A DNA stretch of 64,000 bases, taken from positions 1 through 64,000 of the forward strand of contig CAXHJY010001528.1 of NCBI GenBank assembly GCA_964016885.1, written 5' to 3'. Shown in pieces: positions 17,401-56,695 of this stretch (its first letter is position 1; each line of letters starts with the position of its first letter). A program made the position numbers and the translations under genes. This DNA is from Eledone cirrhosa (taxonomy: Eukaryota). Under the pieces are notes generated by a model, which was not told the origin of the DNA, made no database searches, and saw nothing but the letters and a program-made list of their open reading frames with translations.

Positions 17401-17559
17401 CCAGATACAGGGGGGGGGGGGGGCACAGTCTGAGCAACATGGTCACCGGAGCTGAATTGTCTCATAACGGTACAACCTGACTAACTCATGCAAGAGTGGA
17501 AAATGAATGTTGTGATACTTGCTTATGAAGTATTTCTGAAAATGCAAGAAATAATGTTC

Positions 17560-17591
<32 letters not shown>

Positions 17592-20500
17592 TCACACCTG
17601 ATGTAAAGGAACTGGGTTGGATTTGGAAGAATAGTTAAGTAGGGCAGGTGGAACATTTTGTGTGTGTGTGCTAAGGGTAAAAATATTGAGGACTGTCAAT
17701 GATCTTGGCTTGCTGGAATGTAGCACTGCGTGAGGAGAAAGAACTGTTATATTTTGTTGTATTTGGAAATTGCAATTTTGGGACAGCAGATATTTTGAGT
17801 AGGATGAGAGGAAGGAAATCAGAGATAGGAGTGTGTAAGTAGCTTTAGAATGAACAGATGTAGAAATATCAGGGGAGTCTATAATAAAAGATATTGAGGA
17901 TGGGAATAGAAATATAATTGGTAAGTAGCAATACAATCTCCATAAAACTTACGAAAGCAATTGATTTATCCCTTTAGTTGTGTCAAGGACATGACAGCCG
18001 CCTTAATGCTGGTGATTTGCACAATAAAGGCACCCAGTACAAGCTGTAAAGAGGTTGGTGTTGGGAAGGGCATCCAGCCATAGAAAGCATGCTAAACAAG
18101 GGTTTAGGAGGACCCTTCAATTTGTTTGAAAAGACACAACTCCTCTGCACTCTATAACTATGTATGCAGGATATAGACTCTTCGGCATGTCTGGAAGGTC
18201 AGTAGACCCGTCCAACCCTTGCTAGCAGGGAAAGCGGATGTATGATGATGATAGTACAATAGTACCGTTGCAATTATTGTTGTAATGGCTGTAAAATTCA
18301 GGGGTATGCAGAGCAAACATCTGGGTTTCAGTAGGATCCACTGAGAGGTTAGCATAACTAAGGCTCATATTAGTACCCATGGCCACATCAATAGTCTTTT
18401 ACTACAACTCAGGGAAAAATCATTTGAGTGAAAATGAGTTAAACTAAACAAGTGTAGTGGTGTTAGGTTCAAGTTAAGAGTCTATCATGTGTATGGTGGT
18501 ACATCTGTGGTGAATAGTTATGTGGGTTTAGAAGAGCAGAGTAGGGAAAAACCTGAAAAATTAAGACTAGTGCTTGTTTGCATCATCCTGTATGACTGAT
18601 GTGTGAGAACTGAACTTATTCAAGTTGGAAGTATTTCAGTAATTTTACCATTGCTGAATGCTCTATATTCCCACTTTGAATTTTGTGTCAGAAAGGCGCT
18701 TCCTTTGGTTTGGTTATAGACTCTGAATGGGTTGTGTAGTTATGGCAATGCCCCTCCCAGGGTTGACTGCTGAAATTATGGATTAATATGATCAAGTCAG
18801 ATCTTGAATTAATATCTGGTCCTCACACATATAGTGTCAACCATTGACAATCTCTTATGTTGGATGTTCGTAATGGCTGATGCATGGTAGGCTTTTGTTT
18901 GTGTCGATTTACTGATTTGAGCTGGCTCAAGTGGGCAGTTAAGTACACTACATAAAAGGGAATGGTTAATAACATGTCGTCTTTTTAAAAACCATCTTAT
19001 TTTTTTTAATGTTTGGTTTCTTTTCTTCAGGTGGTGCTGGTGGGGCAAACCCCAGATCCCATCTTGATGATGATGAGGATTTCCAAATGGGGGACGATTT
19101 GCCAGGGGTCTCAAATCAAAGACAGTAAGTTATATTTGAATAAATAGACAAATGTATACTAAAACACCTTGCTTTTGTATTTTTGTAAGATTCTTCAAGT
19201 GATATCATGTGTTGACTCAAATTCAATATTGATTTTTCAGTGTGCCTTATCACAAAAATCGCAGGAAACGACTTCAGAATAAGATCTTAGAAATGGATAA
19301 AGTTCAGACTGGTGAGTTTAATTATAATTGAAGTATTAACCCTTTAGTGTTCAAACCGCCCGAAATTATTTCCCCTTCATTTGTTCAAACCACCCGAAAA
19401 CACCCACACTAAATCATTCTAAAAATAAACAAACCATCATCAAAACCTCGTCAATTCGAGGCTGCTGTGAGATTAGGCCCTTAACGCGAAAATTAACACT
19501 TTATATAGTGGAACAACTTAAAACAACAAGTGTTTTTTTAACTTTGAAAGTGCTACAAATTTTTTTTTTTTTTTTTTTTGTATCAACATGGCTTATGAAA
19601 GTAGCGATACCGACTTTGAAGGTTTTACACACGACGACATTCAGAATAAACAAGAAACAAACGATAATATTAGTGGTTTATCTTCAAATGAATCTGATGT
19701 TTATATGTTTGAAATTTTGTCTGACGATGATTGTTGTTTTGAAAGTGAAAACGAAAAAGGTCTCCAGGGCGCCAATGAAAAAAATACAGCAACATGGTTG
19801 AAAAATACCACACCAATATATGTTCCCAATTTTATTCAAAATACTGGTCCACAACACACATTAGCTCCCGATGCTAAAGCACTGGATTATTTCTTTTTGT
19901 TTTTACCACAAACTTTCTTCGAAGTTGTGGCAGAAGAGATTAATCGATATACCCAAATCAAGGAAAACCCGATCTGTTTGGCGACCGACAGATGCTGCGG
20001 AAATGCAAGCATGTTTTACCGTAAATATTATGTTTGGTATAAAACAATTTCCAAGACTGGAATTACTGGATCACTGATATAATAATATCAAATATTATGC
20101 CGAAAACAACGTATTTAAAATTAAACCAGTATTTGCACCTGGTTGATACTTCAAATGCCCCTATTAATTAATTTCACCTGTCCATAAAAGTCAAATTTGA
20201 CCCAAAATTTATATAATTGTAAATTATTGATATTTAAACATCTGCTGAGAAAATTTCAAGCCTGCACATAGAAAATTAAGAAAATTACAAACAAATAAAA
20301 TTGATAACCCTCTTGGGTATGATTAACTGAAAATAATGCAAACAGATAAGCATAACTTTTGAAAATTAATGTGAATACTAAAAGGTTAAAGTGATACAAA
20401 AAAAACAGATGTTTATGTTTAAAACTTTTGATACTAAACCACCTAAAACTGCTCTTGGTTTTTAAATGCAGAACTGTTTATATCGAGTTTATGTAAGAAT

Positions 20501-22721
20501 CTTAATGAAGAATGAGAAAATTAGATATTTTACTAAATTCTTCCAAATTTTTATACCCATAATTTGAAAATCATTGGCAGTGGATTCCATCAGAAATATA
20601 GTAAAAAAAAAACTAATTTCAGACTATAGAGTCTGTTCACCTCAATATTCATAATCTCTATATATTAAATTAATAGCATAACTATTAATTTGTTGTACAT
20701 GAGACATGTTTCATTAGGAATTGTTTTGAGGTGCATGGCCTCATGGTAAAGGTGTTAAACTTTGGAATATAATGCTGTTAGTTCAATTTCTGGACAAGTG
20801 TGTTGTGTTCTTGAGCAAAATACTTCATTTCACATTGCTGTAGTATACTCAGCTGAAAATGAGTATCAGCAATAGCTGATGGTTTAACTATGCAATGGAC
20901 TGGCTGCCTGTCCAGGGGGAAGTCTTGTATCTAGTCACTTAATGCCACAGGAACTGGGATAAGCACCAGTCTGATGAGAATCCGGGCTCGAGACAGACTT
21001 TACACTTATTTTTAAAATACAAATGGCATAAATTTTGAATTTAAAATTTCATATTTACTCTCACAAGAAATATATTTCCGTGACACTAAAATCTATTAAT
21101 TTGATTTTTGTAATTTTAGGTCGATTAAAACGACTTGGCTTGCCAGTACACAACAACAACAACAGAAATAATGTCACTTGGTATCGTGTAAAGGTATTTA
21201 AATTTTGACTTTTATAAAAATTCCTTATATCTTTTATATGCCATACAGTGGGATTGAATCCAGAACCCTATTGGTCAATTTAATGACTGCAAACCAGGAG
21301 TTGAAATCCCTAAAGCAATGCGATGTTGTCTTAAGTGAACTTAACCATACAGCTATGCTTACACATTTAGTAAGTTTTCTGATTATGTTCTGATTGGGTT
21401 GCTCATACCAGTAATATACTCATGTTGGTTAATATTGATATATGTGTTTGTCTATGTATGTTGGTGACAACAAAAAGAACCTGATCCTCCCTGTAAGATG
21501 GTTGTGTTTGTGACACAAGAAAAAAAGCACCTAGTCCAACCAATGGATTGATTGTACCTGTAATTTGAAGGCCCATCCTTATATATTGTCATGCACGTCC
21601 TGTGGAATGCAGTCATATGTCATTCCAAAGTCTTCGATGTAGGCATGCATCCTGGCAGTGAATATTTAGTCGGGTGTGTTGTCTGGGGCGAAAACCACAC
21701 TTCGTCAGCTAGCATGGACTTGACAATCTCCCTACATCTCTTTGCCAGACACTTAATATAGATTTCACTGGGGAGGCTTAACAAGGAGATCCCTCTATAA
21801 TTGGAGCAATGCCTCTTGTCTCCCTTTTTGAAAATTGGGATTATCACTCCCGATTGCTGCCTTTCCAAAGATCCAGACCACATGGCACACATGAGTTTCA
21901 CAGCGAATACTTTCTTTATTTAAGGCTTTTAACGACTTTGGACAAATTGCATCATCCCCATTGCAAATGGATGATTCTAACAGGACCCATTGGAAGGAGT
22001 GTTTACGGACTCTTCCTTCACAACCCTGCCAGGAATAAGTGGGCAAAGAAGATTTAACAGAAATGTTCTTTGTTAAAATTAGAAGATCCATCATTATAAT
22101 TGATGAATTGAGTTAAATCTTTTTTTCCCCCCGTGTTTCTAAAATAAGTATCAATGTTATGTGGGAATGGTGGATGATAAATTTAACACTGTTGATGATA
22201 TTTGCTTAATTTAACATGATGGATTTTTTTTTTCTTTTTCTAGATACCATGTAGACAAAAATTGGAAAAGCATTTTATTATGAGAGAAATTGAAAATCGC
22301 ATTAATATGCCTTTCCAAGCATCATGTGTGAGTGTCTTACATTATTTTCGTTTATATCTATTTAATTTATTAACTTTTTGTTTTGTGAAAAAATACTAAT
22401 ATTTAAATATTTAGCACTTTTGATACCAAACCACTTGAAACTGCTCCTGGTTCTACATTACAAAGCTGTTTACTTTAACGTGTATATATGTTATCTATAA
22501 ACCTTCCATCATAGTTTTATGTAAGGACCTTTCTTATTTTCCAAACACTAGCCACTGGTTCTATGATACAAAACTTCAAACTGGAAGTTCTGTGAAAACT
22601 AAGGGCAGTCACAGATGGGTTGGTAACAAAAGGGTTAAATTGAATTGAAACTATTTCTCAGTCAGGGTATGGAAATGTGATTATATTTAATTAACACTTG
22701 CCTGCTGGTGGTTATTTTCTG

Positions 22722-22813
<92 letters not shown>

Positions 22814-25800
22814 ATCTCTGAAATTCAAGATAGTTTTAGAGACCCAATGCCACCTACATAAATGTAGAAGTGCCGACAGGATTTTATCAAGTACATAAAC
22901 TCTGTGCGATTCTTTCACTACAATTTTGTTGATTAAACCTACAAATGTTTTATTAATTGTCGGAAGAATTCTTCAATTATGACAAAGACATGACAACCTC
23001 CTTAGTGCTTATGCCATGATATAAGGCACTCAGAGAGCATGGGGAAAGTATGTGAGTGATACGCAAGCTCCTGGCCCGTCTGAGAGGTTTAGTGACTCTA
23101 CTTGAGTACTGACACGGTCTGTGACCATCAGTCCAATTTTTGCTAGTAGGGAAGATGGACATTAAATGATTTTGTGTGTATGTTGTCATTGTATGTCCTT
23201 ATTTCCACATCGGTATACGTTGGACTACTATCTTTCTAGACAGGCCGACGGCAATGTCTTGCTTACAAACGTTCCAGTTTTGGCAAGGTTTCTACAGCTG
23301 GATTACTGTCCTAATGGTGGGTGCTTTTTATTATGGTGTCAGCACTAGAGGTAGTCATAACCTTGATATGACTGAAGAGGCCTCCTCTCAACTCTTTTGG
23401 CATGAACTGGATGCTTTCCTAACATCAAACACTTTACAGAGTGGCACCAGTACTAGAGAGAGAGTATCAGGTCATTTGTTGTGTGTGTGTATATAGATTA
23501 CTCTTTTGCATGTTCCAGTCAACTGGATGAGGTCATGCTGGGGCACTGCCATAATATATATATTTATTTATTTTACTTTTTCAGTTCAAAAATGAACATG
23601 GCAGTTATTGTTTCCATGTCCAAGATAAAGTTACTGCAGATGCTATTCGTCAAGTGGATAAGAAGATAATGATGCCAGATGGATTCAAAGTAAGTTCACT
23701 TTGTCTTTATTGAAACATATCAACTGTGTCTAAAACTATTTGTGTAGAAGGCTTTAGATCATTATCGATAAATCTAAAAAAATGTCCTGTTCAGTTGATA
23801 TCTGACTGAAGATTTTACAATAGCTATGGTGACTGTCATAGGGCTGTAATCATTTTTCTTGTCTAAAAAAATATGACTGACCTCTGGATTTTCCAGTAGC
23901 TCTGCTGGCTTGTGCAGTAACCTCATTTTGTGTCACTGTTGGAGGCGCAACTCTAATGTATGTATGTACCTGTTACTCCTGGTAGTGTTGTAGTGCTGCT
24001 AACTTAGCTTGTCTTGGGGTGTGGCGTCACCTCTCCAGGTCTGAACAGTGATTGAGGATAAGTGAGAAAGTCGTATGGAGGCAGAATTGATCCTACTTTT
24101 AAGCTGGTACTTTTATTATTGGCTTCAGAAATAGTGAGAAAGCAATATAGTGGAAGAATCAACCTTAGTTCTGGAGTGTTTCTTTTTTTATTGACCCTGA
24201 AAGCTTGAGAGACATTGTTGACCCATGAGATTTTAACTCAGTTGAAATGAATACCACAAAGCATTCTATCATGTTTTAACGACTACCAATTCGCCACATT
24301 ACATGTGGTACCTGCTGTGAATGTTTGTTGATAAAGGGCCTGTTGTGGTATAAATTCTAATCTTGAAAGATTCCATGTTTTTACATTGGCAATAAAAGTG
24401 ACTATGGTTAGATGGTTTTTAATAAACTTTTAAAATACTTAACCTTATATAATTTCAGTTGGCCATAATTGTGAAGCCTTCTTGTGCACCTGGGTTGACC
24501 CTGGATGATAAAACACTGGAAAAACTAAAGGTAATCATTTCTTGTAAAATTATTAGAGATATTTGACTCTCTTCCCCATTTTGTGATTACCTGCATATAT
24601 CATAATAAGTAGTATTTTTGCGTAATTTGTGGCAGTTAGTGCTAGAGGTAACATCCTCTGTAAAGTGGTTGGTGATCAAATGGCAATGATAGAGGTAGAA
24701 AGGACTCTTCAGTTTTGCCAAGTACATGACAAACCTCTCTAGTGCTAAATTTAAAGTGGTAGTGTTGGTGCCACGGTAATATACACCCAGTACACTTCAT
24801 AAGGTGACTGATCGTGTTAGAAAAGACAATCAACCATATAGACCACACCAAAAACACATGAGCAAGATGTGGTTCTTTGTGCCATCTAATCTTGAACCTT
24901 GGTGACCTCTTCAACCATTATTGAAAACAACTTGATGATAATGATGAGGGCATTCAATCGTTTAAGATCAAAACAAAATGAATTGTGGACAGTAGTGATG
25001 GTGTTAAACTGATAATATTAATTAGGATAATGATACATAATTAATTTTTCTCATTTTAGCTTTGCTTGAGTGATCGATATGATTCATCTATCAAAATGCT
25101 TCGCCTAAATAATTTATATCAAGATGAAAGTAAGTACATTGCGTATTCTTTTTACACTTGTTTCTCTCGGTAAACTTTAAACATCTTATGGATTGATAAT
25201 TTAAGAACAAGTAAAATCATCATTTTTGGCACGTCTTGCATATTCCTCAACTTATAATCAAGTATGGTAGATTTTATTTTAGTGTTGTGAAATACGTTAT
25301 GAAATATCTTCTCATTGTCTTCAATATCCTGTGATATAAAACTATCAAAGTCATTGTATCAATTAATATACTCTTGCAAGCAGGGAAAAGCGGACGTAAA
25401 ATGATGATGATGGTTATTAAAGTCTTCTAAATTTATGATGATAATTTAAAGTTTCTACTAAATGTAAAGTGTATTTATTTAACATTTTTAGTATATAATT
25501 TCCATACGACTAATTATGAAGCCTAATGGAAGCCTATAAGAAAGCATGATCTACAGGATTGAACATATGTCACATTTTCTTGTTTATAAGAACGTACAAA
25601 CTTCCTTGTATATGTATGTGTGTCATGATCAAGCCGAAATATATATGAGGTGTTCTGTGAGAAAGGTGTAAATAACTTTCAAATCAATCTTCACTGAAGG
25701 TTGATTTGTAAGGTTTGGGTTTGTTCTTTCTGCATTGTCTGTTTCATAAATGAATATTTATGTATTTATCTTCTTAAACCCTTTGTTCCTTGTTTTATAT

Positions 25801-28800
25801 TATTTAGTGTTGAGATCTTCTGACGTCTCCCTGGCTTTGAACCGACCACAAGTGATGACAAATGTTGTTACTATAATCAAAGAAAATATTCCAGAAGTAA
25901 GAATTTATTTTATTTTACATTCCTTCATGTCTATCTTATGTAATATATACACACACTCACAAATAATGAATCAGAACATATCAAATATGTTTCGAATTTT
26001 GTGTTTCTCAATAAGCAAACTCAATAGACTTTATCTAGAGCCATAATAACCAAATAAAGAGATATATGTATATACAGAAAGAGCCATATATTGCACAAGA
26101 AACACAGTATATTGTATATATACAATATACTGTGTTTCTTGTGCAATATATGGCTCTTTCTCTTTCTGTATATACATATATCTCTTTATTTGGTTTTATA
26201 TATATATATTTGCAAGAGATGACAAAATGAACAGGCCTGCTTTTTCTTCAATAATTTCTTTTTGTTTCTACTCATTCCTTTATCTTTCTATTTCATCTTT
26301 CATTTTTCATCCTATGACTAGTGTCTGAAACATTAAGACTTTTTTCCTATTATACCAAGTGCAAAACTGATATATTTCTTCATTGTACTGTGTTGTTTGG
26401 TTTGTTATTTCTGTTTACTTTTTGAATATATATATATGAGCCCCTGCCTGTTAGAACATTCGGTAGAGTGTGGTAATGTGAGATGCAGGCACTCCAGTTC
26501 ATCTGAGAGGCCAGTAGCTCTAGGTACTGACCCAGCCTGTTGATGCATCCAGCTTTTAACAATGGATGTTATATGATGATGATGTGACTATATTCTGTAT
26601 TCTCCTCAAACAGTTATATAATTTCAAGGCTGTTAATTTTGTTTTTCTAATTATATTTTCTGAAATCATACAAAAATAATATTTATTGTAAATGTTTGTC
26701 TTATCTGTATCTTTTCAGTTGGTGTCTCTTGATGTTAGTTGCAACAGATTGGTGACTTTGGAATACTTGTCGGCACTAGTCCCACATACCCCTCATTTGA
26801 AAAATCTGAACCTTAGTAAAAATATGGTAGGTCACTTTGAAGTTTTGTTGCTAAAAAAACAACTTGATTTGTTTTTATATTTAACTATTAAAATCAAACC
26901 ACCTGAAACTGTCCCTATTTAACTGTAGAAAACTTTTTAAATGTTTATAATTCTCTAAACTATTTTCCTTGTAATTTAAGTAGGAACCTATGCATGCTCC
27001 AAAAAACTAGCTTAATGAAAAAGTTAGTAATACAGTGGAACCTCGTCTCAAATTCAATTCGTCCTGAAGGCCATTGGTTATCCAAAATATTTGTAAACCG
27101 AAATGTTGAGAGAGAGAGACGGTGTATGAAAGACAGATAGATATCACCACAGTAACTAACTATACAGCAAGTGATGCTTTCCTTCCAATACTCCTAGCTT
27201 GTTGCTAGTTGTGTGTTCATTACAGAAGATACCGTTTGTGAACCGAGATGTTTTATGTTAAAATAAATTGTTCATGAAATGATGTTCCACTGTATTACTA
27301 AATCTCATCAAATTCTTATTTATTTTCAAAATGATTTAAGTATCATTGTCTGTATTTCATTAAAAATATGGTAATAAAAGGGTTAATTTGCTGATTAGAG
27401 CTAATATTTCTTACATTAGTATAGAATTATTTGTTTTAACTTCTGCCTTTTTCTCCTTAGCTATTTGGTTATAGTAAATAATTGTGACAGGAAGCTTTTC
27501 TTGGCTCAGAGGTTAATTATTTTACCCTAAATTATATATGTCTCTATATCATGTTATTAGCTTGTAATTTTTAGGGTGGTGGATTAGCAGTATCGGAGGA
27601 GCATTGGACAACATGCATTGCAGCATATAGTTTCGTCCGTTTACATTCTGAGTTCAAATCCCACTGAGGTTAGCTTTGGGTTTCGTGCTTATGGGATCGA
27701 TAAAATAAAGCACCAGTAACTCACTGGGGGTCGATTTACTTGACTTTCTCCTCTCCGCAAATTATTGGCCTTTTGACTAAATAAGAAACCATTATATCTG
27801 TATGCATCAAGGTGGTGGATTGGTAGAATTGTTAGAACATTGGACAAATGCATTGTGGTATTTATTTTGGCTCTTTATCCTGCCAAGTTTAACTTTGACT
27901 CTCATCTTTCCAAGGGATACTAAAATAAAGTATTAGTCAAATGCTAGGGTCAATATATTTTACCTTTCTTGCTCTCCCCAATTTACTGATTTGTGCTTAA
28001 ATTAGAAACCATTGTATGTATCTACATCTCTTCTGATTACATATCTTACACCTTTTTAACTTATTGTTTTAGCTGAAAACCGTGGAAGAATTGGAGAAGG
28101 TTAAAGACTGGAAACTTGATGAATTGATACTAGAAGGCAATGAGTTGTGTAATAGATTTAAAGACCACTCGATGTATGTCAGGTAATGTAAAGGATAAGT
28201 TGACTTGAGTATCACCAGTATTTCCAGCTCTGTACTTGTTCTAATCTCATGCTGCACACTGAGAAATGGGTATCAGAGCTGCTTAAACCAATAATGTTTT
28301 ATAAGTACAAAGGTAGGACTAATGGATAAACTAACTGACCGAATGTTTATCGTCTGTAAATTAACGAACTTGGATCTTTGAAATGGAGTTACTTTTGCAT
28401 TTAAACATTTTTTTATTTTTTAAATTCTATTTTAAATGCTAAACTAATGTAACTTCCATCATTATTTAGTTTCCTTATATTGGAATCTGTTTTCATTTGA
28501 CCAGAGTTTGGTGTTTGGCAAGCCTAAATACTCATAGTTGATGACTTATGTATAAAACATTTAAAGGAGGTGTGGAGAGTCCCATATGGGCACTGTAGAA
28601 GATTTTGCTTTTGTGTGATGTTAGGGCAGGTTTCGGGTGGTATTGATTCCTCTCTATGCCAACAGAAGCTGCGCAATCTAACAAATCACAAACGCAAATT
28701 TTACAGTACCAAGTGGTCAGTAGAGTGGGAATGTAAGCAAGCAAGATGCAGTCAGTAGTTCTGCATGAGTACTGACCCTGTCTATAACAACACGTCCATC

Positions 28801-29400
28801 CCTTGTTACCAGGGAAAATGATTAAGTGATGATGATGATAATGCGACTTTTAGTGGCAAGGTGTTCTTACCTGTTTGTAGTTGCATGGACCAGGCAATTT
28901 GACCTCCAAATACAGCAGGAAACCAAACACCCATATTGCTGTGTTTTCTGACACTTTATTGATTCTATAGGACCCATGTTAAACTGTATGTTCCCATCAT
29001 GTAAAGACTCCCCCACTGGTCTTGCAGTGGTTAATCCTCAACTGCTTTTGGTATTCGTTGGGGTTTTTTCAGTTAAGTGGACTGGGGCAGTGTGAAATGA
29101 AGCGTCTTGCTCAAGGACACAATGCATTGCCCAGTCCAGTAATCAAACTCATAACCTTGTGATCATGAGTCTAACACCCTATCCACTTGGCCACATTCCT
29201 TCACCTGACTGTGTATGCTTTGTTCTCACCCAATCCTATGACTTGTGTCACAGGGAAAGTTAGTTTCATGGCAACAGTCTTTCTGTGAGGTGTTCACTTG
29301 GCTATAATTAACCAAGTTTGTCCAGTGCTTTACATAGATATGTGTTGTTCATTCACACATGTATGGCTTTCACTTGAAATGGTTACTGTTATATGGACCC

Positions 29401-29435
<35 letters not shown>

Positions 29436-32337
29436 CGGTTCATTCAATGTATTTAATTATTTTCACCTTTTCTTTTTAGATATTTTTTCTAAGGATTACC
29501 ACCAAGTTACCTCTGAATTTTTTTCAAGCAGTATTTGAAGTTTAGAAACACATTTAATTGAGAATTTATGTGTTATTTTTTTTTTTTTTTTTTTTTTTTT
29601 TAATAATATTTAAAATTTAGAAATAGAAAAAATGAGAATATTACTACTCTACATATAGGGTCTCAAGTTCAAATCTTACTGAGGTTGGCTTTGCCTTTCA
29701 TCCTTATGGGGTTGATAAAATAAAGTACTACTGAGGCACAGTGGTGGATTTAATCAACTTAACTTCTCTCCAAATTGCTGGCCTTATGCCTATAGTAGAA
29801 ATCATTATTATTATTAAAGTAATTTGTGGTATGTTAGTTTTAAGGTTCTATAGACACTAAATCACTGTCCAATACTTGAGTGTGTGTTGAGCTTATGTCG
29901 CTGACATATAAATGTATGCATCCATACATATACACCGGCATACATGCAGCCACATAGAAATTTAGTAATTTGAAATTACACACATATATATATAGAAATA
30001 ATAAATACAAAGACCAAAATGTGAAAGGGGCTCGATAAGGATTGTATATATATATATATATATAAGTATATATAAACCTGTAGAGCAAATATTTATTATT
30101 AATACAGATTAGAGCAAAGAATTTCGGCTTTCACCTTGTAAAAAAATCTTCTGAAGATCCTTTGTATGGTGAAAGCAAAAATTCCTTGCTTAAACTTTAA
30201 TCTGTACTAATGATAGATATAGATATGTCAAATTACTATATATATATAATAGCATCTTTATAATATTGTACAAATATCAAGTTTTATATTTTAGTTAGAT
30301 TAGGAAAGTATACTTAATATAAACACAAATATTGAAAACTCTTAGTACCAATCCCTTTCGCATTGTTTTTTTTAATCCATAATATATAAACTGATATGTT
30401 TTATACACACGCACACCCACATACATTACACACATGCATACATACATATATGTAAAATGTCTATTGCTTTTTTCAGCAATCTCAACATGATTAAAGTTGA
30501 ATATTTCTATATGACTTTTGTGAACATTTGTTTTTAAAAAAACTTAATTCAGTGATTATTGTTATCATAGATTTTTTTTTTTTATTGCTATTAATCAGTT
30601 TTTAAGGAGTGATTTGAAATCTATCATATGTGTGTGTATATATATATATTTACATACACCACACACATATACAATAGAATGATTTTAATTTTATTGATTT
30701 CTATATGTAAACTAATGATTGAAAGTCAAAATCATTTCTTTAAATGTCACCTTTCTCAGTTAGAACAGATACACTCTCTCTTTAATGCTCTGTCTCTTTC
30801 CTTCCCTCCCTACCTCTCTCTCTATAGTTTACTAACAATTCAATGTTAAAATAATTGTTCATAAGGCGGTGGATTGGCAGTTTCGGTAGTGTCGGGCAAA
30901 ATGCTTTGCAGCATAGTTACGGCCCTATATGCAGCTGATGTTAGCTTTGCCTTTCATCCTTAGGGAGGCGATAAAATACAGTACCAGTAATGCACTGGTG
31001 TCGATTTAATCGACTTTCTCTTCCCTTCAAATTGCTGGTGTTGTGCTAAATGTAGAAACCATTATTTTCTATGTTAGAGGTTTGGTGTAGAAGCTGAAAC
31101 AATGATGTCTTCAAGTCTTTAGTCCCTCTACATTCTAGGTTCAAATTTCACCAGAATCAACTTTGCTGCCTCTGGTGAAATAGTATCAGGCATGTATTTG
31201 GACTAATTCTGTTGGTCAGCCCTTTCTATTCCACTCTACTCTACAACTAGACGTCTTAATACCAATGTCAGAAATTAGTATTTTATATACTAATACCAAC
31301 ATTTATATTGATTTGGATTAGAAATGATATTTTCCATAAAATGTTTGTAGAAAGGAATTGAACCTTTAATTTTAAAAGTTAATTTGTTTTAAGGTATGCT
31401 AATTATTGATGGTTGAATGATTGCCAATAGTGGAAAAAAACCTGTTTCAATTTGAAACCTATGCTAGCAGGAGAAAAATATAAAGAGTAAATAAAAAATT
31501 TAGAATAATGTGCCCTTCATTCATCATCAATTAATGTTCATTTTCTATGCTAGTATATATTGGATAGTTTGGATAACCATGTCTTGCTTGTTCCATATTT
31601 TGGTGTGGTTTCTATGGCTGGATGTCCTTCTTGATGCCAACTGTTGTACAGAATGTACTGGGTACATTTTATCAGGGCACCAGCATTTGAGAGGTTGTAA
31701 TGTACTCAGCAATTCTATCCCATAGCTTTTGTATGGGAAAATTATTCTCCTTAACTGATTTCTGTTGTGAAGCAGTCAATAGTTTAGTTTAAAAACAAAA
31801 AAATTAATGTAAAAATGAAAACACTCTTCTGAGCGCCAAAGTTGAAGTTTATTGAACTTGGCTGTTATGATGGTGTCACTAAGTTCTAATTTCTATTTGA
31901 AAACTTTCAAACAAAGTGTTGGGAAGTCTCTTTGGCTGTTTCAAAGACATGACAACCTCCCTAATGCTGGTGTCACAAGATGCTTTTGGTAGAGCCACAG
32001 GATGGTATGTTGCGGTCCTGACTCTTCAGAGCAAACAATAGAGTATAGGAACATATACAAATTGCTGCGCTTCCCCCCAACCTTGCCTGGCCTGGCTCAT
32101 CAGCAAGAGGTCAGTAACTTCACTTGAGTACTGATTGGTCTGTGTAATGACACGTTCAACCCTTACTAGCAGAGGAAAACTTACATTAAACAGTGATATC
32201 TCATGTGAGATGAGATTGTTGGGGCCACTCTCACATAAGCAGATTATAAAATAGTTGTATTGTCATGGTTGCAAGGGGTTATTAAATATGATGGAAATCT
32301 ACTTGGAATTTGACATCAGATAAGTAAATATGAAATT

Positions 32338-32368
<31 letters not shown>

Positions 32369-35300
32369 CAAAATTGAAAACCTGAATGAGGGGAAATGAT
32401 CTTCAGTTAGCTGAACTGTCAAATTACTAATCTAAACAAATATATTTTGTTATCAATCTTTATCAAATTAACTAGAGTTTAACCAATTATGTTTTGGTAT
32501 GTATGCTGCTAATTAAAAAGAACAATTTCTCATGATGGTTTCTATACTAATATATTTTTTTAAATTGAAAAATTTAAATGAGAGTTATTGAAGTTTGAAT
32601 GTTGGCATATTTTAATATTAATCTTATATTTTACTAAACAAAATGTAAAAGTCTTGTTAGTGTTGTAATAAAACTAACTTTAATTGTTACTGTTCCTTGT
32701 TACATAACAATACTTTAAACATCTGAATATAACATGGCTGAATGGTTGAGGAGTTCGCTTTTCAATCATTAGGGTCCTGGGTTCAATCTCACTGCATGGA
32801 CATCTTGGGCAAGTATCATCCACCCATCCATGCCTAGTGAATGAGATAGAGTAAACGGAAACCGGATGCCAGTTGCATTGACTGTATTTGTAATTCAAAG
32901 GGACAGTCTTGTTTAACTGAATCTCCCTGAGAATTAGACTAAGATACATGTCTGTGGAATGCTCAGCCACTGACATTAATTTCATGAGCAGGCTGTTCTA
33001 TTAATTGAACAAACAAAACAATCATCATTGAAACTGATTGAGGTCCATTCCAAACATAACTGATTTGATTTTAACCAATACTCTTTTGCTTGTTCCAGCC
33101 GACTAGCTAAGGCCATACTGCTGCACCGTGTTTTTTTTTGTTTTTTTTTTAATTATTTTAATTATTTTTCAGACCAAAATGAATACCTTCTCTCTCTATC
33201 CACTACTATTGCTCTAAGCACAATCTGATAAAATATATATATTTTTTTATTTTATTTTTTTTTTATTTTTAAATTAAAATTATCTCTTCAGATTATGCTA
33301 GCAAGTTAGTATGGCTTTATCTGTTGTAGACTGACACCTCATTTAACACTTTTCATACCAAACTGTCTGAAACCAGCTCTAGTTCTATTATTTACAATAT
33401 AAAAGTATGTTCTAAAATCTTTCGAACATAATTTTATGTAAGAATCCTTATGTTCCAAACACCAGCTTAGTTATGAGAAAGTTAAAATACCAAATCTTTA
33501 TTATTTTAAGATCACAGACAATGTGGTAATGAAAGGGTTAAAACTGTGTTGCTTATTGTAATCTATTATTTTTCAATGGCACAGAAGTGTTTGTTTGTTT
33601 TTTTTTGTTTTTGTTTTAGCTGGCAAAACCCAATTCCTTCGGGTTTTTTTTTTTTTTTTATTCGATATGGTCTTAGTGTTTTGTATTGATTTATTTATTA
33701 AACTTGAAAACAATTTTTTTAATGATCACAAAAATGGACTTGAGTCAAAAAGAAGAAAAGAAAACAAAAATACATTAAATGTTGAAAAAAAAGACTTAAT
33801 TTAAAAAATAAAAAAGTGAAAAATGGCAAAAAAAAAAGTTAAATTGTGAGAAGAAAAAAAAGGAAATATTAAATATAATGTAAAAGATGATTAAAGTGGT
33901 AAAAAATATATAAAAGTATGCTCCTGTAATTTAAATTTGTGATCTGAAAATATTTTTTGCTTTCTTAACCAATTTAATTTACTCTACTTCCATATATATA
34001 TACTAATAAAACTGTTTCATATTCCCATGGTGTGCTTAAGTAACATCATAGAATATCAGTTCTCTCATGAACTTTCATTTATAGTTTTAAAAAACATTTT
34101 ATTTGCCAGGTATAGAAATTTGTTTTACTTAAATTTTAAATTTTTATGCTTTGTTTTAATGAGTACCGCTTTTTTTTTTTTATGTATATACTTCAATTAC
34201 AATTACTTGAAAATGTGAAAACTTTTAAAGTCATCAGAAATATATTGCAAGAACCATGACTAAACTTGGACTGGATAAACTGAAAGTAAAAGATACACCA
34301 AAAAAAAAATGGAAATGAGTAGACAATATTCAAACTATCCTCAAAGACTTTAATCTATTCTCTATTTTGGGAAAAAGAAAGAAAATATTCCTACCTCATT
34401 TTTTTTTATGAAATTCTCAGCATGAACAGACGGAAATTCCTTGTTGCAATGTTATTTGAAGATGTTTATATATACATATATGTTATATATATACACTTGT
34501 ATATATTAGTTATATGTATATATAAAATGTTATCTGGAATGGAGTTCCTGTATGGCGGAAATAAAAAGGAAAGGATTGTCCAGAGAATTGAAGTTTCCAA
34601 CCCAGAAGAAAATGTACGGCTCTTTCCAGTTTTGATGGCGTGAACATATTGGATGCTACATACTGTATGGAATCAAGAAAGAGCTGTGAAGCCATTTGTT
34701 GCATTTGCTCTTTTTTTTTTCCTCCTCTCTTTCACCACCAGCTTGCAGTTATTGTACTGTCACCGATGACGGGTAAGCTTTTCCAGAAGGGAAAACGACC
34801 TATGACAGGGACAGGAACCTTTAACTCGGCTAGAGAGACCAAAGCTTTTCAGACCTTTCCAGCCTTTTTTTTTTTTTAACTTTTACCTTGATTAAAATTG
34901 ACAAACATCAAAATGGAACTTTCAAAAACTGAAACTTCTAAAAACCAAAAATACATAAATAACAAGAAAAACCTAAATCAAATGGACAAATAATTTTTTT
35001 TTTTTTTTTTTTTATTCCTGATTTGATTTTAAAGTGAAATGAAAAATACATATTTTTTTATATTTATCTTTTTTTTTTTTTTTTTTTTAATTTTCAAAAT
35101 CTTTTCTTTTTTTAAATAATCAGTTTTTGTATAAATGTGTGTATGTATGAGTGTGAGAAAGTATGTGTGTAAATGCATGTATATGAAAATATAATTACTT
35201 CTGTGCCAAATTGAAATTTGTTTTTCTTATTTTTCATTTCTTTATTAATAACAGAATAGGAAGCTGAATTCTATTCTGTAAGAAGTCATACTTTTAGATT

Positions 35301-38300
35301 CCCACTAAAAAATATCTGTTCTAATTGAGTGAGTGTATCATATTCGCATTTGTCCAGTCTCTTGGCATGAATTTCAAATGTTAAAAACCAATTTCATATC
35401 AAATCACTTCCTTAATATTGATTTTAGTTGATTTAAATTTCAGAAATTATTTAAGTATATCAATCGTTCCCATACCAACTTTAATCATGTCTGTTGATGG
35501 GGGAGGGATGTTTGTTAATCTTCATGTGTTTCATAATTTCAATTTAAATCTATGAAATGTTTTGTAAATTTGCTTCTACCTTCAGAGCCGTAAGAAAGAA
35601 ATTTCCCAAAGTCTTAAAATTGGTAAGCTATATAATATTATCTTATTTTAAATGAAAGAGCTGTTGTGGTATATGTGTGAATCAAGAAAGTCTTGCGTAT
35701 GTATAGTATTTTATTGATTGATTTAATTCAATGTTAGCATTATGTATTTTGGATTTGTTTGAATAGATTTTTTTTCATTAACCATAATTGGCATTTCTAA
35801 GTATTGCCTTTATGTTGCCATACATTATCTCCTGAACAATTGTTACATGTTCCAATCCAATTTATGGCCTTTTCACTCCCTGGCTGGCCTCTACCACTTT
35901 GTTTGGTTTTGGTCATGAGACACACACATATATATATATATATATATATCCAATCTAATCTAGGGCCTTCTCACTCCAATTGGAGGAGCCTTTCTCTGGC
36001 TGACCTCCACTGCTTTCTGTTTGGCTTTAGTCGTGTCCTCAGAGGTGTACCTGTACACATCATGCTTGACCAATTGCGGGTTGGTGAAACTATTTAACCC
36101 ATAGTCAGGATGTATAGTCATTGACTCTTGAGTTCATCTGCTCTTTTAACAGTTCTTGTTTTTTGTGCTGCTAAGGTTCCACTTAACCTCCTCACTGGAC
36201 CAGAGTCTAGTGGAGAAGCAGGTTGTACTGGGTTACATGGTACCTGTAGCAGGCAGAAGCCTGACCTGACATATTAGTCAGTGAAAAATACATTGATCGA
36301 GTTTTACTATAGCTGATTTAAGTAGAAATTACCTGATATTTTCATTAATATTCTATGTCTAAGAGAGATATCACTCATTTATTTCATTAAACGAGTCTGT
36401 TTTAGTTAGTCTTTGCAGATGAATGTTCAATCAGAATTGATATCTGGGAGTGCTTCAAAACAGTCATTAATTTCCACCTGTATAGCAATAAGCTTGTATG
36501 AATTAATCTATGAAAACTAATTTAAATTAATGATAGCTGAGAGAATGAGTATATTATTAATGGGTGATATAAAGATGGGGAATATGAAATGATGAAAGAT
36601 GTCAGAACTACTAAAAGAATTTGATGATAAATCTATTAATGGCCTTATTGTAATTTTATTGTAGGATTGCCAAGATCTTCCACCACCAATTGTCTTTGAC
36701 TTAGAATCTGATATTGATCTACCTCCTTCGAAAGATAACTATTTCATGAATTCTGATGTTCAAAATTTACTGGTTAAATTTTTGAAACAGTATTATTTAA
36801 TTTATGACTCCGATAACAGACAACCTTTGGTAGATGCTTATCATGATCAGGTAAATGTTTCTTTAATATTTCTACATTAATTATACCTCAGGTTTTTGAC
36901 GTCTCTCAAGATATACAATCTTAGTGCGTCCATCCAACGCCTCCCAGGACGTATCACAGGCCCATCGCCAGATTTTACATATGTGATGGGGACTGCAATA
37001 TATTTTTCCAACAGGCCCCTCTAACTAAGGCCTGAATGCATCGGTCTTTGTTAACCCAAGCGAGATGGACAAAGCAGTATAGCTGCCTTTGTTGTGCCTT
37101 GCCATATTACAGTGATTTTTGGTGGTCTTAGTTGTGTCAGTCACCAATTTCTACTTTTCTCAGACCCAATGGACCGGGTGTTTGAGGACTGCCCTCGCAA
37201 CCCTCTCAGAAATAAGTGAGCAAAGGAATTTTTAACATACAGTTCAGATGTTAATTCCTCTGTTATATTTCTTGAACCTTTTCTTTCAATTATAAGACAT
37301 TCTCTGTATTTATGTGACATGTAAAATTTTAAATTGTCATTTAACATTTATCCATTTCTTTGTAGGCTATATTCTCATTTGCCTGCAACTTCAACCGTAT
37401 ACTTGGCAAGTAAGTACATTATATTCCTGTTTTCATTTTTTTTTTTTTTTTTTTTTTACGACATGTGGAGGCACGTGTTAAGGGTGTCAGACTTAGAATC
37501 ATAATATTGTGGGTTTGATTTCTGGACTGGATTGTATGGTATGTTCTAGAGCAAAACACTTCATTCCACATTGTTCCAGTATACTTAGCAGAAAATGAGT
37601 ATCAGCAATAGCTGGGGGATTTACCCCTATGTTGACTGGCATCCTGTCCAGGCGGATGTCTTGAACTCTCAATCGCTTGATGCCACGAAAACTGGGATAA
37701 ACACTGGCCTGATGGACCTCCTGGCTTGAAAAAGACTTTAGACGTTTTTTAGCAGACATTAATCTGTTGTTAAGAAATTAGCTTCACAACTGAATTGTTT
37801 GGGATTTGATCTCACTACACAGCATTTCGGGCAGGTGTTTTCCTCTGTAGCCTGCCTTAGTAGTACTTCGTGATTGAATCTGGTTGTTAGAAACTGTAAG
37901 GAGTCCTGTGTGTGTGTATGTGCATGAGGCTGTCTCTGTCTTCATATCAAACCATTCAGCAAGAAGTAGTGATGTGTGTTTGTGACTGCTGAAGTTTGTA
38001 TGAAGTGTATGTGTTTATAGGCTCTTAGTTTGACAAAAAGTGATTTGTAAAGTAAATTAGAGACATGAAAAAATGTGGACAGTTGGGATCAATATGTTCT
38101 ACTAGATCAGGGGTGTATCTAAGCATGGTCACATTTTAATGGCTGGAACCAACAAAAGAATTTATATTTTATGGGGTCGATAAAATAAAGTACCAGTAAT
38201 GCACTGGGTAATTGTTGGCCTTGTGCCTAAAGTAGAAACAATTATATTTATGGCTTTTCTAATATATTTCAGGCAGCCATCTTTGAATGAATATATCACT

Positions 38301-41300
38301 GAAAGTAGGAATCTACTTAAATTAAATGTTGGTAAGTTCCACATATTAATGTCTCTTTACTATATATTTTTTTCTTCTATTTATTATTCACTTGAAGGCA
38401 GTGGATTGGCGGAATCGGTAGAGGTCTGGCAACAGGCTTTGAAGTATTTGTTAAAACTCTTATTTTTCTAAGTTCAAATCCTACTGTGGTCAACTTTGCC
38501 TTTCATCCTTCCAGGGTCAGTAGTGGGGTTGATGTAATCGACTGCCCCACAAATTGCTGGCCTTGTATTTAAATTAACTATTATTTATTATTGACTTATT
38601 GTAATTTGTTTTGATACTAACAGGTCGTCGAGATAAGCACTTAAAAGTTGGCCGGATTAATGTTGTTTCACAACTTCGGTTATTGCCAAGAACACAACAT
38701 GACCTTAATTCATTTCACATTGATGTTCAACATCTGTCGGTAAGAATTACTCACTTTTCATACCAAACCTCATGAAACTTGCCTGTAGTTCAACTAAGCT
38801 GTTTAAAGCATTTGTTTTTATTTAAAAACCTTCCATCATAATTTTATTTAACCCTCTATATTTACTATTGTATTTTCATTGTAAAAGCTTTACCTTACAT
38901 AATTATCTCACATAATATCGAATCTAGGAGATTTTGCTATTATTTATTTTGAGAACAATACCTTAACATCGGTATGAGCAGCTGGTTACAAAGTCAATAA
39001 TGATTAACATCTATATTAGTTACTTATAAAATATTTATTTTATTTTTCTAATGATGTTAATTTTTCTTCACTTTATCTAAACTATTAAAATCTTCCTTTT
39101 TCTCTTTCAGAGAACATTGCTTATTTTCAGTGTTTTTGGAATTTTTAAAGAAAGTAAGTGATTTATAATCCGACTTCTGATAGCTTATTAACTTTTTATA
39201 CTCTTGTAATGTGTATGTTAAGTATTTATTTTAATAAATCTAGAGACACATGTTGCAAGTTGAGTTTATCACTTATGCCCCCAACCTGATGAGCCTCTGC
39301 ACTCTAGACATTTTAGATATTAGGTTACTATTTGTAAGGCACAGTAAATAAAAATTTAGGTAATTATTTTTAATAAAAAAAATATTGTATTAACTACACT
39401 CTATTCATGCAATATGGAAGACTTAAATAAACAAAAATTCATTTATAGAATAAATTTGGTCTTTTGTTTTTAAATGAAATTAAGAATTTTTGATAAATTT
39501 CCAATAACTACACTCACAATCCATGTACTGTCGTGATATTAAATATAACTTATATGTAATACAATTTAGTATTTTATCATTAACTTAATTCAAGCATTAT
39601 TTTAGTAAGATGGCATTAGTTTTTGTTGAGTTTTAACTATACAATAATTACTGTGGTAATGCTTCAATGTATGGTATGTTTTCCTTTTTACAGCTGAATC
39701 CAAAGGGGAACCTCCAATACGCACATTTAGTCGTATGTTTATTACAACCCCACAGCAAGATGGGTAAGATAAATCTATATTCAAATTCTACAACAGATTT
39801 TTTAACACCTGTTCATTCAGTTATTAACTAATCTAATTTGTATGGATGCCAAGATAAGGGACTGTTTAAGAAATTGGCTTCACAATCATATGGTTTCAGG
39901 ATTGGTCAACCCAATCCTTGGGAGTGAAATTTGGTAGATGAATGTTGTGTGGAAGTCAGTCAGTTACTGGTTTCACCTCTCCACCATTGACACATATTGT
40001 GTTGAATTGGTTCTGATTGAGAATTATGTTATGGCTACACATCATTATTTTTTTGTCAGTTTACCCTGTTGCTATGAGTTGTCAGGGTCTAAGACATGAG
40101 GTGGTCATAAAACGTCTTACTTATGTTCTATATTTTGGTATGGCTTTTACAGCTGTGTGTATGCGAATGTGAATATATATATATGATGATGATGATGATG
40201 ATATTGTCTATTGTTTATATAATTTCAGTATTGTTATAGTGAATGATATGTTGACGATATCTAATGCCACACCTGAACAGATACAGGTAAGCAATTTATT
40301 AATTTTTGTCAAATTTCTGACGTGTTTATTGACATTGATTATACAAGTTAAAACCTTATTACAGTCATTGTCTTAACCCTTTTGTTATGAAACAACCTGA
40401 AACCATAATTTTATATTTAAAAAAAACAAGTTATGTTCCAAAACACTAGCTTAATAATTTTAGTTGTCACAAGATAGCTTACACATTGTGGAACACAGTC
40501 TCAAATTTAACCTTTGACAAATAATTATTGTTATTTTATATTTTTAGTCTGCCTTCAAGACTCCAGCGCCAACGCCTTCATCAAGTCCAACACAAGGAGG
40601 GTCTGCTTTAGCTGAAACTGTTAGTACATCACCTGCTCCTCTCACTCTCCCCACTGCTGCAGCTGCATGCAATGTATCATTAACAGAAATCCAGAAGGAA
40701 ATGATATTACAGTTTTCAATCCAGTCAGAGATGAATGCCGAATACTCATTGGAGTGCCTACAACAAAACAATTGGGAGTACGAGAAAGCTGCACAAGTTT
40801 TCCTCAATCTCAAGGTAAAAATTTTAATTCCTGATCACATTAACCCTTTTGTTACCAATTAAACCAAAACTGGCTCTGGTTCTATGAAATAAAACTACCC
40901 ATTTTAAAGGTTTCCAATTTAAATTAAAATCTTCCAGCATAATTTTATATAAGAACCTTACATTGGGTTATCTTAAATAAATAGTCTGTATTTCATTAGA
41001 ATTATGGTCTTGGAGGGGCTACATAATGATATTTTATTTCAATATTAGTTTAGATGAAGATGGTGGGTTGGCAGTATCGGTAAAGCTTTGGACATCCTTT
41101 GTGGCATAGTTATGGCCCTCTACATTTTGAGTTTAAATCCCACCAAGGTTACCTTTCCCTTTCATCCTTCTGAGGTTGATAAAATAAAATACCAGTAATC
41201 CATTCAGGTCAATTTAATCGACTTTCCCCTCACACCCAAAATTGTTGACCTTGTGCCTAAATCAGAAACCATTTATTAGTTTAGAATTTAGCATCATCTG

Positions 41301-41521
41301 TGAGATACTGCCAACTATTTTCCCTCAGGGGCTTTTACACCCAATTTGTTAGCCTTTTTTATCGTCATACACACAAAAAAAGTACATTAAAGCTTCTAAA
41401 TTTTTAATAAATATTAGATCATTACCTTTTTTTATATTTGATTAATTTTTCTCATATATCCTATATTTTTCTTCTATTTCAGGCAACAGGCAAAATTCCA
41501 TTACAAGCATTCATTAAATGA
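14489..41521 (+). CDS. NXF1: Nuclear RNA export factor 1 (TAP/NXF1), 22 coding exons, about 643 aa
   Basis: GT-AG exons in continuous frame: 14489-14555, 17307-17375, 19031-19124, 19241-19311, 21120-21193, 22244-22327, 23585-23689, 24459-24530, 25060-25129, 25808-25896, 26719-26826, 28073-28182, 35586-35622, 36665-36850, 37366-37409, 38273-38331, 38624-38739, 39111-39153, 39694-39763, 40229-40286, 40548-40814, 41483-41521 (1932 nt). Domains: basic N-terminus, RRM-like (WYRVKIP...), LRR (LVSLDVSCNRL...LKNLNLSKN...LDELILEGNELC), NTF2-like (FLKQYYLIYDSDNRQPLVDAYH...LPRTQHD...RTFSRMF...IVNDML) and UBA/TAP-C (QSEMNAEYSLECLQQNNWEYEKAAQVF...GKIPLQAF). Confidence 0.96.
17560..17940 (-). mobile_element. 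Probable degenerate CR1/L2-like LINE 3' fragment with poly(A) tail, in NXF1 intron 2
   Basis: About 28-nt T tract followed by TCACACCTGA, similar to the start of a block at about 53084; weak coding remnant only. Confidence 0.35.
19340..20385 (+). mobile_element. Internally deleted piggyBac transposon in NXF1 intron 4
   Basis: TTAA|CCCTTTAGTGTTCA ... TGAATACTAAAAGG|TTAA (imperfect TIRs, TTAA TSD). Frameshifted PGBD-like transposase N-terminus at about 19588-20140: acidic start MAYESSDTDFEGF, GP...ALDYFFLFL...INRY, WRPTDAAEM...MFGI, IMPK...L.QYLHL. Confidence 0.88.
20735..21005 (+). mobile_element. CORE-type tRNA SINE (representative)
   Basis: GTGTTCTTGAGCAAAATACTTCATTTCACATTGCT...CTCAGCTGAAAATGAGTA CORE-like block after a tRNA-like head; related copies at about 29065-29200(-), 37465-37740, 44710-44860, 50025-50185(-), 62365-62480. 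Confidence 0.65.
21610..21960 (-). mobile_element. RTE-type LINE RT fragment in NXF1 intron 5
   Basis: ORF 21620-21901 GVIIPIFKKGDKRHCSNYRGISLLSLP..IY.K.L..R, the canonical LINE RT domain 0/1 motif. Confidence 0.85.
22724..22810. repeat. (TA)n microsatellite
   Basis: Pure TA run; many similar TA/CA/GA runs across the window (e.g. 52696-52780, 53982-54090, 54275-54378, 56695-57006, 57948-58062). Confidence 0.95.
26048..26195. repeat. Near-perfect ~150-bp palindrome in NXF1 intron 10
   Basis: AACCAAATAAAGAGATATATGTATATACAGAAAGAGCCATATATTGCACAAGAAACACAGTATATTGTATA is followed directly by its reverse complement, with one extra 6-nt TCTTTC. Confidence 0.92.
27033..27292. mobile_element. Tigger/pogo-like (Tc1-mariner) MITE nested in a piggyBac-like MITE
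   Basis: TA|CAGTGGAAC ... GTTCCACTG|TA ends with TA TSD; interrupts an element starting TTAAC...AAACCACCTGAAAC (about 26881) and ending AAAGGGTTAA (about 27386). Confidence 0.7.
33343..33542 (+). mobile_element. Non-autonomous piggyBac-like MITE (representative of a family)
   Basis: TTAA|CACTTTTCATACC ... GGTAATGAAAGGG|TTAA; related copies at about 20423, 22415-22638, 26881-27386, 38752, 40374, 40840, 48458. Confidence 0.65.
34757..34814 (+). promoter_or_regulatory. CTE-like (constitutive transport element) RNA hairpin, predicted NXF1-binding cis-element
   Basis: CTGTC-A-CC GATGAC GGGT AAGC TTTTCC AGAAG GGAAAA CG ACCT ATGACA GG-GACAG. Closing stem, internal loop (GAUGAC / AUGACA), GGGU/ACCU stem and apical stem. 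The strands CCGATGACGGGT and ACCTATGACAGG each differ by one base from the MPMV CTE motifs as I recall them (CCAATGACGGGT, ACCTAAGACAGG). Located in the intron orthologous to the CTE-bearing vertebrate NXF1 intron. Confidence 0.85.
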
Positions 41522-47076: not shown

Positions 47077-56154
<9,078 letters not shown>

Positions 56155-56695
56155 TGTTCTTCACTACAGATAAATGTGTGTGTATATCTATCTATCTATC
56201 TATATAAACATGCGTAGGCGTGTAAGTGCATAGGTGTGTATGTGTGGATATATGTGTATATGTGTGTATGTATGTGTAAATATGTATGTTTGTGTATGTA
56301 TATGTATGTATATATATATGTGTGTGTATATGTGTGTATGTATGTGTATATGTGGATGTGGATGTATGTGTGTATATATATGTGTGTGTACGTATGTATA
56401 TGTGTGTATGAAAAAATGAAAATAATTTTTTTTTTTTAATGCGGCCCCTGATGGTGTGTGGCCCTAAGCTATAACTTATTTAGCTCCTAGGTAAGTCCAG
56501 CACTGTGTATTTGTAAGTGTGTATAAGTGTGTATACTATGTACTGTGGCCTTTTTACTGTTCTACTGTCTTAGAAATATCGCTAACGATTGGACAATGTC
56601 CCCACATAAAACTGATGAAGAAAGCTGGACCTGAAGCTTTAATAGTGTGCCTAAAACTAAAGCTTTCACATTATGCATACACACACAACCATAAC

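Follow-up and report, generated by a model that had tools for sequence, protein, structure and literature searches.

The window, by which we mean the whole 64,000-nt stretch of DNA that was analysed, contains a complete NXF1 gene, the longest intron of which carries a hairpin of the CTE type. The gene, the intron and its two flanking exons are arranged as follows.

14489..41521, plus strand: NXF1 gene, 22 coding exons, 643 aa, complete in the window (exon model made by hand)
28073..28182, plus strand: 110-nt exon (exon 12, the equivalent of human exon 10), ending GTC AG/GTAA, with the slash at the junction
28183..35585, plus strand: intron 12, 7403 nt, the longest of the NXF1 introns, lying within codon 339 and equivalent in position to human intron 10
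35586..35622, plus strand: 37-nt exon, AVRKKFPKVLKL, whose junction to the next exon is seen in sequencing runs X14 and X10

All 21 introns are of the GT-AG type, and the reading frame, read exon by exon from the window, is free of internal stops. The encoded protein is 89-90% identical to NXF1 of three Octopus species, 83% identical to that of Argonauta and 67% identical to those of decapodiforms, and the host is consequently an octopod. In a homologue search one exon found NXF1 of Octopus sinensis, at 97%; this O. sinensis homologue is in turn matched by human NXF1 chains from the PDB (E 3e-123), and exon 14 has one match in the 3.0-Gb genome. The junction between exon 12 and intron 12 falls in the codon aligned to human NXF1 residue 339 (human residue numbers were derived from the range of the 4WYK construct by an offset of 94). 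Given that the human short form has 356 aa, 18 of them encoded by intron 10 (PMC5170612), the octopod intron 12 lies at the position of human intron 10. Since exon 12 ends GTC AG/GTAA, retention of the intron would lead to a stop at once, the frame ending at the intron's first codon, with a predicted protein of 338 aa that ends SMYVR. The most stable 60-nt window of intron 12 (28223-28283, -22.7 kcal/mol) lies just past the 5' splice site, and may affect retention of the intron.

The hairpin is on the sense strand of this orthologous intron, a feature of the cellular NXF1 intron-10 CTE, and has the following parts.

34757..34814, plus strand: CTE-type hairpin, whole element, 58 nt, recognised by motif, fold and model score
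34763..34777, plus strand: 5' arm, 15 nt, made up of CC, loop strand GAUGAC, GGGU, AA and G; 14 of 15 positions as in the arm of the viral unit L022
34779..34795, plus strand: apical stem of 6 bp, UUUUCC/GGAAAA, with a 5-nt loop, from the fold
34796..34809, plus strand: 3' arm, 14 nt, made up of C, a bulged G, ACCU, loop strand AUGACA and GG; U at 34803 where the others have A

The initial annotation, which was made from the letters of the window, had described a 58-nt hairpin at 34757-34814 on the plus strand, in the NXF1 gene of a probable cephalopod, about 770 nt upstream of the 3' splice site of the intron between the 110-nt and 37-nt exons, and had equated that intron with vertebrate intron 10. 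Each of these statements is borne out: the protein is that of an octopod NXF1, the junction is in the codon noted above, the 3' end of the hairpin is 772 nt from the 37-nt exon (near the 3' end of intron 12), and the recomputed fold has the pairing and loops described. From the base upward it consists of a CUGUC/GACAG stem, a bulged A, CC/GG and a 6x6 internal loop (GAUGAC/AUGACA), followed by GGGU/ACCU, AA facing a 1-nt bulge, one G-C pair, another bulge of 1 nt and the 6-bp apical stem. The claim that both motif strands are present in the right geometry likewise holds, as 26 of 29 arm positions are those of L022 in the same half-site fold, with one mismatch in the 5' arm of 15 nt and two in the 3' arm of 14 nt. 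The 5' arm differs from L022 by its G at 34765, a base that the viral unit L026 also has.

Matches this close are not found in comparable sequence, the best arm match having six mismatches in 200 first-order resamplings of intron 12, and nine (plus strand) or eight (minus strand) in the rest of the window. The analytic expectation of a match with 3/29 mismatches is 6.6e-9 for intron 12 and 0.005 for the genome. A covariance model (R1) built from 13 other elements, with the window copy left out, assigns 32.9 bits to the hairpin (E 2.9e-7), and the next match in the window scores 11.4 bits. Because the training set of R1 had been found by a similar pattern, 31 pattern-bearing loci unrelated to NXF1 or retroviruses, a set that leaves out ten endogenous retrovirus loci, were also scored, and reached at most 22.0 bits. 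The window gave no match at gathering score to 4227 Rfam families, although Rfam may hold no CTE model.

In the 3.0-Gb genome, a scan for the two-arm pattern gave one match (reversed control: none), and a DNA search with 111 nt returned the window copy alone, a result that by itself does not prove rarity; weaker copies elsewhere are possible. Taken by itself, the canonical 12-nt 3' arm has 73 occurrences and its reversed control 216. A 66-nt minisatellite with 26.5 copies (L050:1-1751; G000:C9) has this 12-mer in 12 copies, on the minus strand and without the 5' arm; it scores about 12 bits with R1, and the resemblance is thus probably due to chance.

The hairpin has a minimum free energy of -17.9 kcal/mol (z -3.11, equalled by 1 of 200 shuffles), and in a 125-nt context the pair probabilities are 0.94-0.99 for GGGU/ACCU and 0.99 for CC/GG; the fold with an open 6x6 loop is within 0.4 kcal/mol of the minimum. 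We considered folding energy as evidence in itself and rejected it as too weak, the reverse strand having a z-score of -2.6 and the 122- and 141-nt contexts z-scores of about -0.2. When intron 12 is divided into 368 windows of 60 nt (step 20), at least 10 of them reach -17.5 kcal/mol or lower, and the folds of two comparable elements from metagenomes, L047 and L038, have z-scores of -1.7 and -1.3. Stability therefore does not single out the hairpin, and the evidence consists of motif, geometry and position.

Scanning viral contigs for the pattern gave 25 loci, three of which are betaretrovirus-type records of 8.1-8.6 kb with two tandem CTE units. L022, which we take to be MPMV, served as the reference for the arm comparison above. 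A stretch of 22 nt in L022 is identical to part of a primer for the SRV-1 half-CTE given in PMC4330393. The octopod element and the MPMV/SRV CTE (L021, L022, L026) have in common the arms (26 of 29 nt), CC/GG, the 6x6 loop, GGGU/ACCU, the AA bulge, the G-C pair, the 1-nt bulge and the 6-bp stem, and differ in that the octopod element is one unit rather than a two-fold symmetric pair, has U in place of A13, and resides in a host intron rather than a viral 3' region. Apical stem geometry is common to the octopod hairpin, L038 and the outer viral half-site, although the base pairs differ.

A metagenome scan gave 21 loci, namely ten endogenous betaretrovirus fragments, nine low-scoring loci without an NXF1 exon, and L047 and L038. 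In the ten fragments (L030, L032, L033, L035, L037, L039, L041, L042, L045 and L048), which belong to at least two families and several of which have broken frames, both CTE arms come directly after the env stop codon. These mammalian endogenous units resemble the octopod element in their two arms and similar spacing, and differ in being multi-copy proviral fragments with canonical AAGACA and another apical region; presumably they are akin to CTE-IAP.

L047 (3346-4413) is an invertebrate NXF1 gene with exon sizes of 84/105/78/70/89/108/110, the pattern seen in the window. Its fully canonical CTE begins roughly 900 nt downstream of its 110-nt exon, in the orthologous intron; there too, retention would lead to a stop at once. 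Its CTE has a long, well-paired basal stem, and two more donor-like sequences occur within about 75 nt past the real donor. The L047 protein shares 32-45% identity with each of the 38 other rows of the alignment, and a careful tree, whose rows include no named sponge or cnidarian, puts it outside the clades of molluscs (94/99) and vertebrates (99/97) without assigning it to a phylum. A nemertean affinity was considered on the strength of a weak grouping in a quick tree and was dropped, the careful tree giving no such placement, and a homologue search with 47 aa of L047 matched L047 alone. In L038, an AT-rich contig of 2.4 kb whose open frames are all shorter than 70 aa, positions 561-625 of the minus strand form a canonical CTE hairpin. 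The contig is probably another animal's NXF1 intron, but since it is without an NXF1 exon we do not count it as an NXF1 copy. The window, L047 and L038 share one core fold, including the bulges, with three different basal stems and, in L038, a different apical stem.

The frequency of betaretrovirus-type sequences among the pattern matches (3/25 viral, 10/21 metagenome) raises the question of whether the octopod element arose independently, as a retroelement-borne CTE, by convergence or by chance. We regard this as extremely improbable. A single copy was found in the genome; a frame scan, made without family libraries, found no open frame longer than 106 codons in intron 12; the 521 nt upstream of the hairpin match elsewhere, among the matches listed, by a TA-rich simple repeat alone; L047 and vertebrates have the element in this same intron; and the chance expectation for intron 12 is the 6.6e-9 given above. 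The initial annotation had left open a choice between bilaterian ancestry and convergence, and the canonical CTE in the same intron of L047 favours inheritance.

Four of 19 sequencing runs (X1, X10, X14 and X18) were chosen for alignment to 33900-37450, and these provide a view of the element in the window's species and its relatives; 12 other runs, with fewer than five shared words, were left out of the evidence.

34739..34860, plus strand: conserved block, 122 nt, ungapped, about 90% identical in RNA contigs of X1 (13 differences) and X10 (12 differences)

X1 and X10 come from related octopods whose exon 14 is about 92% identical to that of the window, so that the hairpin block is about as conserved as coding sequence, and the 30-173 nt that flank it in their contigs do not align at 80%; the two may be the same or close species, and so do not count as wholly separate cases. 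For the DNA run X18, the differences over the 106 nt of 34737-34842 amount to at most 8 substitutions plus 2 gap letters, whereas the preceding 172 nt (34565-34736) have at least 19 substitutions and at least 27 gap letters. In these close relatives, then, the hairpin is conserved above the surrounding intron. Of the checks proposed in the initial annotation, those on model score, copy number and conservation in related species have accordingly come out in its favour: the score of 32.9 bits falls in intron 12 with a model that excludes the window copy, the element was found once in 3.0 Gb rather than as a repeat, and the 122-nt block is retained in X1 and X10.

X14 is RNA of the window's own species, is spliced at two junctions, and confirms the hairpin letter for letter. 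Contig depth in X14 is 4.4-4.7 over intron 12 and 2.2-3.5 over introns 13 and 14, figures from contigs, which cannot rank levels; given that introns 13 and 14 are covered at similar low depth, selective retention of intron 12 is not seen in this run. Of 280 proteins compared, nine are aligned as far as their own end and stop short of position 600, and two of these end exactly at the intron 12 donor. P0127, a decapodiform-like, transcript-derived protein with nine contigs, adjoins Acanthosepion in a quick tree and has a full-length form (P0265) in the same cluster. P0235, a bivalve-like, transcript-derived protein, adjoins Mya and Mercenaria in a quick tree and has a terminal R where seven of seven full-length bivalve-group proteins have S. 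Both sequences would fit retained-intron transcripts in other molluscs.

The most conspicuous departure of the octopod hairpin from its counterparts is a single base. By the numbering of the crystal structure, three bases at the site bound by NXF1 are flipped out, namely A13, G14 and A15, and U11 forms a pair with G50 (PMC5961109). Position 34803 corresponds to A13 and reads U, whereas A is present in 18 of 18 other half-sites, even though the search pattern allowed either base. The U is confirmed by the same-species RNA contig, which has no other letters over 34207-34885. The loop strand AAGACA is called conserved in PMC4330393, and the octopod AUGACA is identical to it at five of six positions; the 5' arm feature CC-(A/G)(A/G)UGAC-GGGU-AA and a stem-loop with the 6x6 loop closed by CC/GG and GGGU/ACCU are both present. 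Lacking exact AAGACA, the hairpin is best described as a CTE variant and not as a plain member.

The NXF1 surface has diverged as well. Of 20 human residues in contact with the CTE (list from PMC4330390), six are identical in the window NXF1, compared with 7/20 in L047, 3-10 in other invertebrates and 10-15 in four vertebrates. Low contact identity is thus general and does not decide NXF1 binding. At human positions 125-128, however, octopods, and no other animals in the alignment, have PCRQ, where most animals have P-aromatic-G-basic. Within exon 6 (window 22244-22260) this forms part of IPCRQ, at the RNA-contact loop of the RRM (human 124-128), against IP-aromatic-G-basic in most animals; IPCRQ is common to Octopus and Argonauta and absent from decapodiforms. 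The contact positions are too variable across the 39 rows to read co-evolution with U13.

The change from A13 to U, the divergence of RRM and LRR contact positions, and the lack of selective intron 12 retention in X14 could together indicate a decaying relic, that is, an orthologue of the CTE that octopod NXF1 no longer binds. This seems highly improbable to us, as all stems are intact, 26 of 29 arm positions have been kept in a repeat-rich intron, and the block is about as conserved in relatives as a coding exon. Moreover, the contacts have also diverged in L047, which has a canonical loop, and in fish (10/20), a group in which the zebrafish protein works (PMC4338338).

Two kinds of splice-like signal overlap or adjoin the hairpin.

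34702..34748, plus strand: pyrimidine tract and two CAG, possible alternative acceptors of putative use
34770..34778, plus strand: donor-like site CGG/GTAAGC inside the 5' arm, best of 410 GT sites in intron 12

The donor-like site scores above the real intron 12 donor, and together with the two acceptors it would define a candidate exon ending at 34772 and overlapping the 5' arm, of 31 nt (frameshifting) or 24 nt (in-frame). Under a further hypothesis, the element is orthologous to the vertebrate one and its main job in octopods is splicing control, through a 31-nt poison exon, a 24-nt micro-exon or a U1 decoy donor, with NXF1 binding or folding deciding the use of the CAG at 34741/34748 and the donor at 34773. 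The rank of the donor speaks for such a role, as do the two AG, which are second and third of 344 by pyrimidine count (yet 48th and 62nd by the gene's own weight matrix), and the contigs of X1 and X10, which begin aligning at exactly 34739, at the CAG that the end of exon 12 would have in common if spliced there. That alignment start may, however, mark a mere edge of conservation, exon 12 being outside the aligned stretch; no junction at 34742, 34749 or 34772 occurs among the 13 joints listed for the four runs; the contigs of X14, X1 and X10 run unspliced through the donor-like site; and L047 has no good acceptor nearby. A donor-like site is also conserved in vertebrate CTEs, but PMC4338338 reports no evidence of its use in NXF1 genes. 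On balance we consider splicing control unlikely to be the main job of the element.

The interpretation that we prefer is that the hairpin is an inherited NXF1-binding export element, belonging to an NXF1-CTE loop that existed at or before the bilaterian ancestor, and we hold this to be quite probable. The closest known system is the vertebrate NXF1 intron-10 CTE (Wang, Rekosh, Hammarskjold 2015, PMC4338338), to which the octopod element corresponds in gene, intron position and single loop, in the donor-like site beside the loop, and in retention leading to a short RRM-LRR protein, which is a prediction in the octopod case. It differs in its protostome host and its loop AUGACA; the base-by-base comparison was made with viral units, vertebrate cellular CTEs being compared by description. 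The octopod element lies towards the 3' end of an intron of 7.4 kb, whereas the vertebrate one is nearer the 5' splice site (PMC4338338). Retention would add no tail in the octopod, with its immediate stop, while the human short form gains 18 residues from the intron (Li et al. 2016, PMC5170612).

A CTE-type function of the octopod hairpin is likely by analogy with that system. The hairpin would be the octopod descendant of the ancestor of the vertebrate NXF1 intron 10 element; the transcribed intron 12 would fold the 6x6 loop, which NXF1 (RRM-LRR, with NXT1) would bind without adaptors, and NXF1 would then export its own mRNA still containing intron 12. The intron-retaining mRNA would yield a 338-aa protein consisting of RRM-LRR only, or be degraded, and NXF1 would thereby control the proportions of its own isoforms. 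For octopods, these steps (direct binding by NXF1, export of mRNA with the intron retained, a short protein) are inferred from the vertebrate findings (PMC4338338, PMC5170612). An elaboration of this loop, in which octopods have re-tuned it so that U13, a remodelled RRM/LRR surface and a hairpin lying over the donor of a tiny exon form a switch between splicing, decay and export, is speculative and in our view rather improbable.

The occurrence of the element in an octopus, a second invertebrate and vertebrates has as its simplest history a presence at or before the protostome-deuterostome split, and we consider it quite probable that the NXF1-CTE loop is ancestral to bilaterians, or older. 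The element would subsequently have been lost or have diverged in flies and nematodes, and would later have been captured by betaretroviruses. We take the retained intron of sbr, the NXF1 orthologue of Drosophila, to be the same intron. Drosophila sbr resembles octopod NXF1, on the preferred interpretation, in having an intron-containing transcript, which is head-enriched (PMC8151460). In the literature covered, cellular NXF1 CTEs are recorded for mammals, zebrafish and coelacanth, and a BLAST search in PMC4338338 found none in Drosophila or C. elegans; the device has thus been counted as a vertebrate mechanism. The octopod hairpin suggests an export device much older than vertebrates.

Our literature search, whose coverage lay outside most subscription journals, found no report of an invertebrate NXF1 CTE and none for octopus. 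Mamon and Golubkova have reportedly carried out comparative work on the NXF1 exon-intron-exon cassette, which may bear on novelty. Copies in an octopus and in a second invertebrate would place the CTE among the very small number of short intronic RNA elements whose primary sequence has been preserved across protostomes and deuterostomes, and would strengthen the case for betaretroviruses having acquired it from a host gene. The natural A13U change, combined with a diverged NXF1 surface, lends itself to testing how the loop is recognised by NXF1. In mammals the short NXF1 protein is neuronal, so that its counterpart in cephalopods can be sought directly.

Several other features of the window were observed. 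Copies of a short interspersed repeat were recognised by eye in NXF1 introns at 29660-29800, 30930-31060, 38420-38570 and 41080-41270, and such insertions may have contributed to the length of the CTE intron. Intron 4 contains a 186-codon open frame with an acidic start (19522-20079, plus strand), which by eye we take to be an N-terminal fragment of a piggyBac-type transposase. Downstream of NXF1, exon-like frames on the minus strand at 54565-55519 and 55978-56160 suggest a neighbouring gene, presumably with a carbohydrate-binding-like domain.
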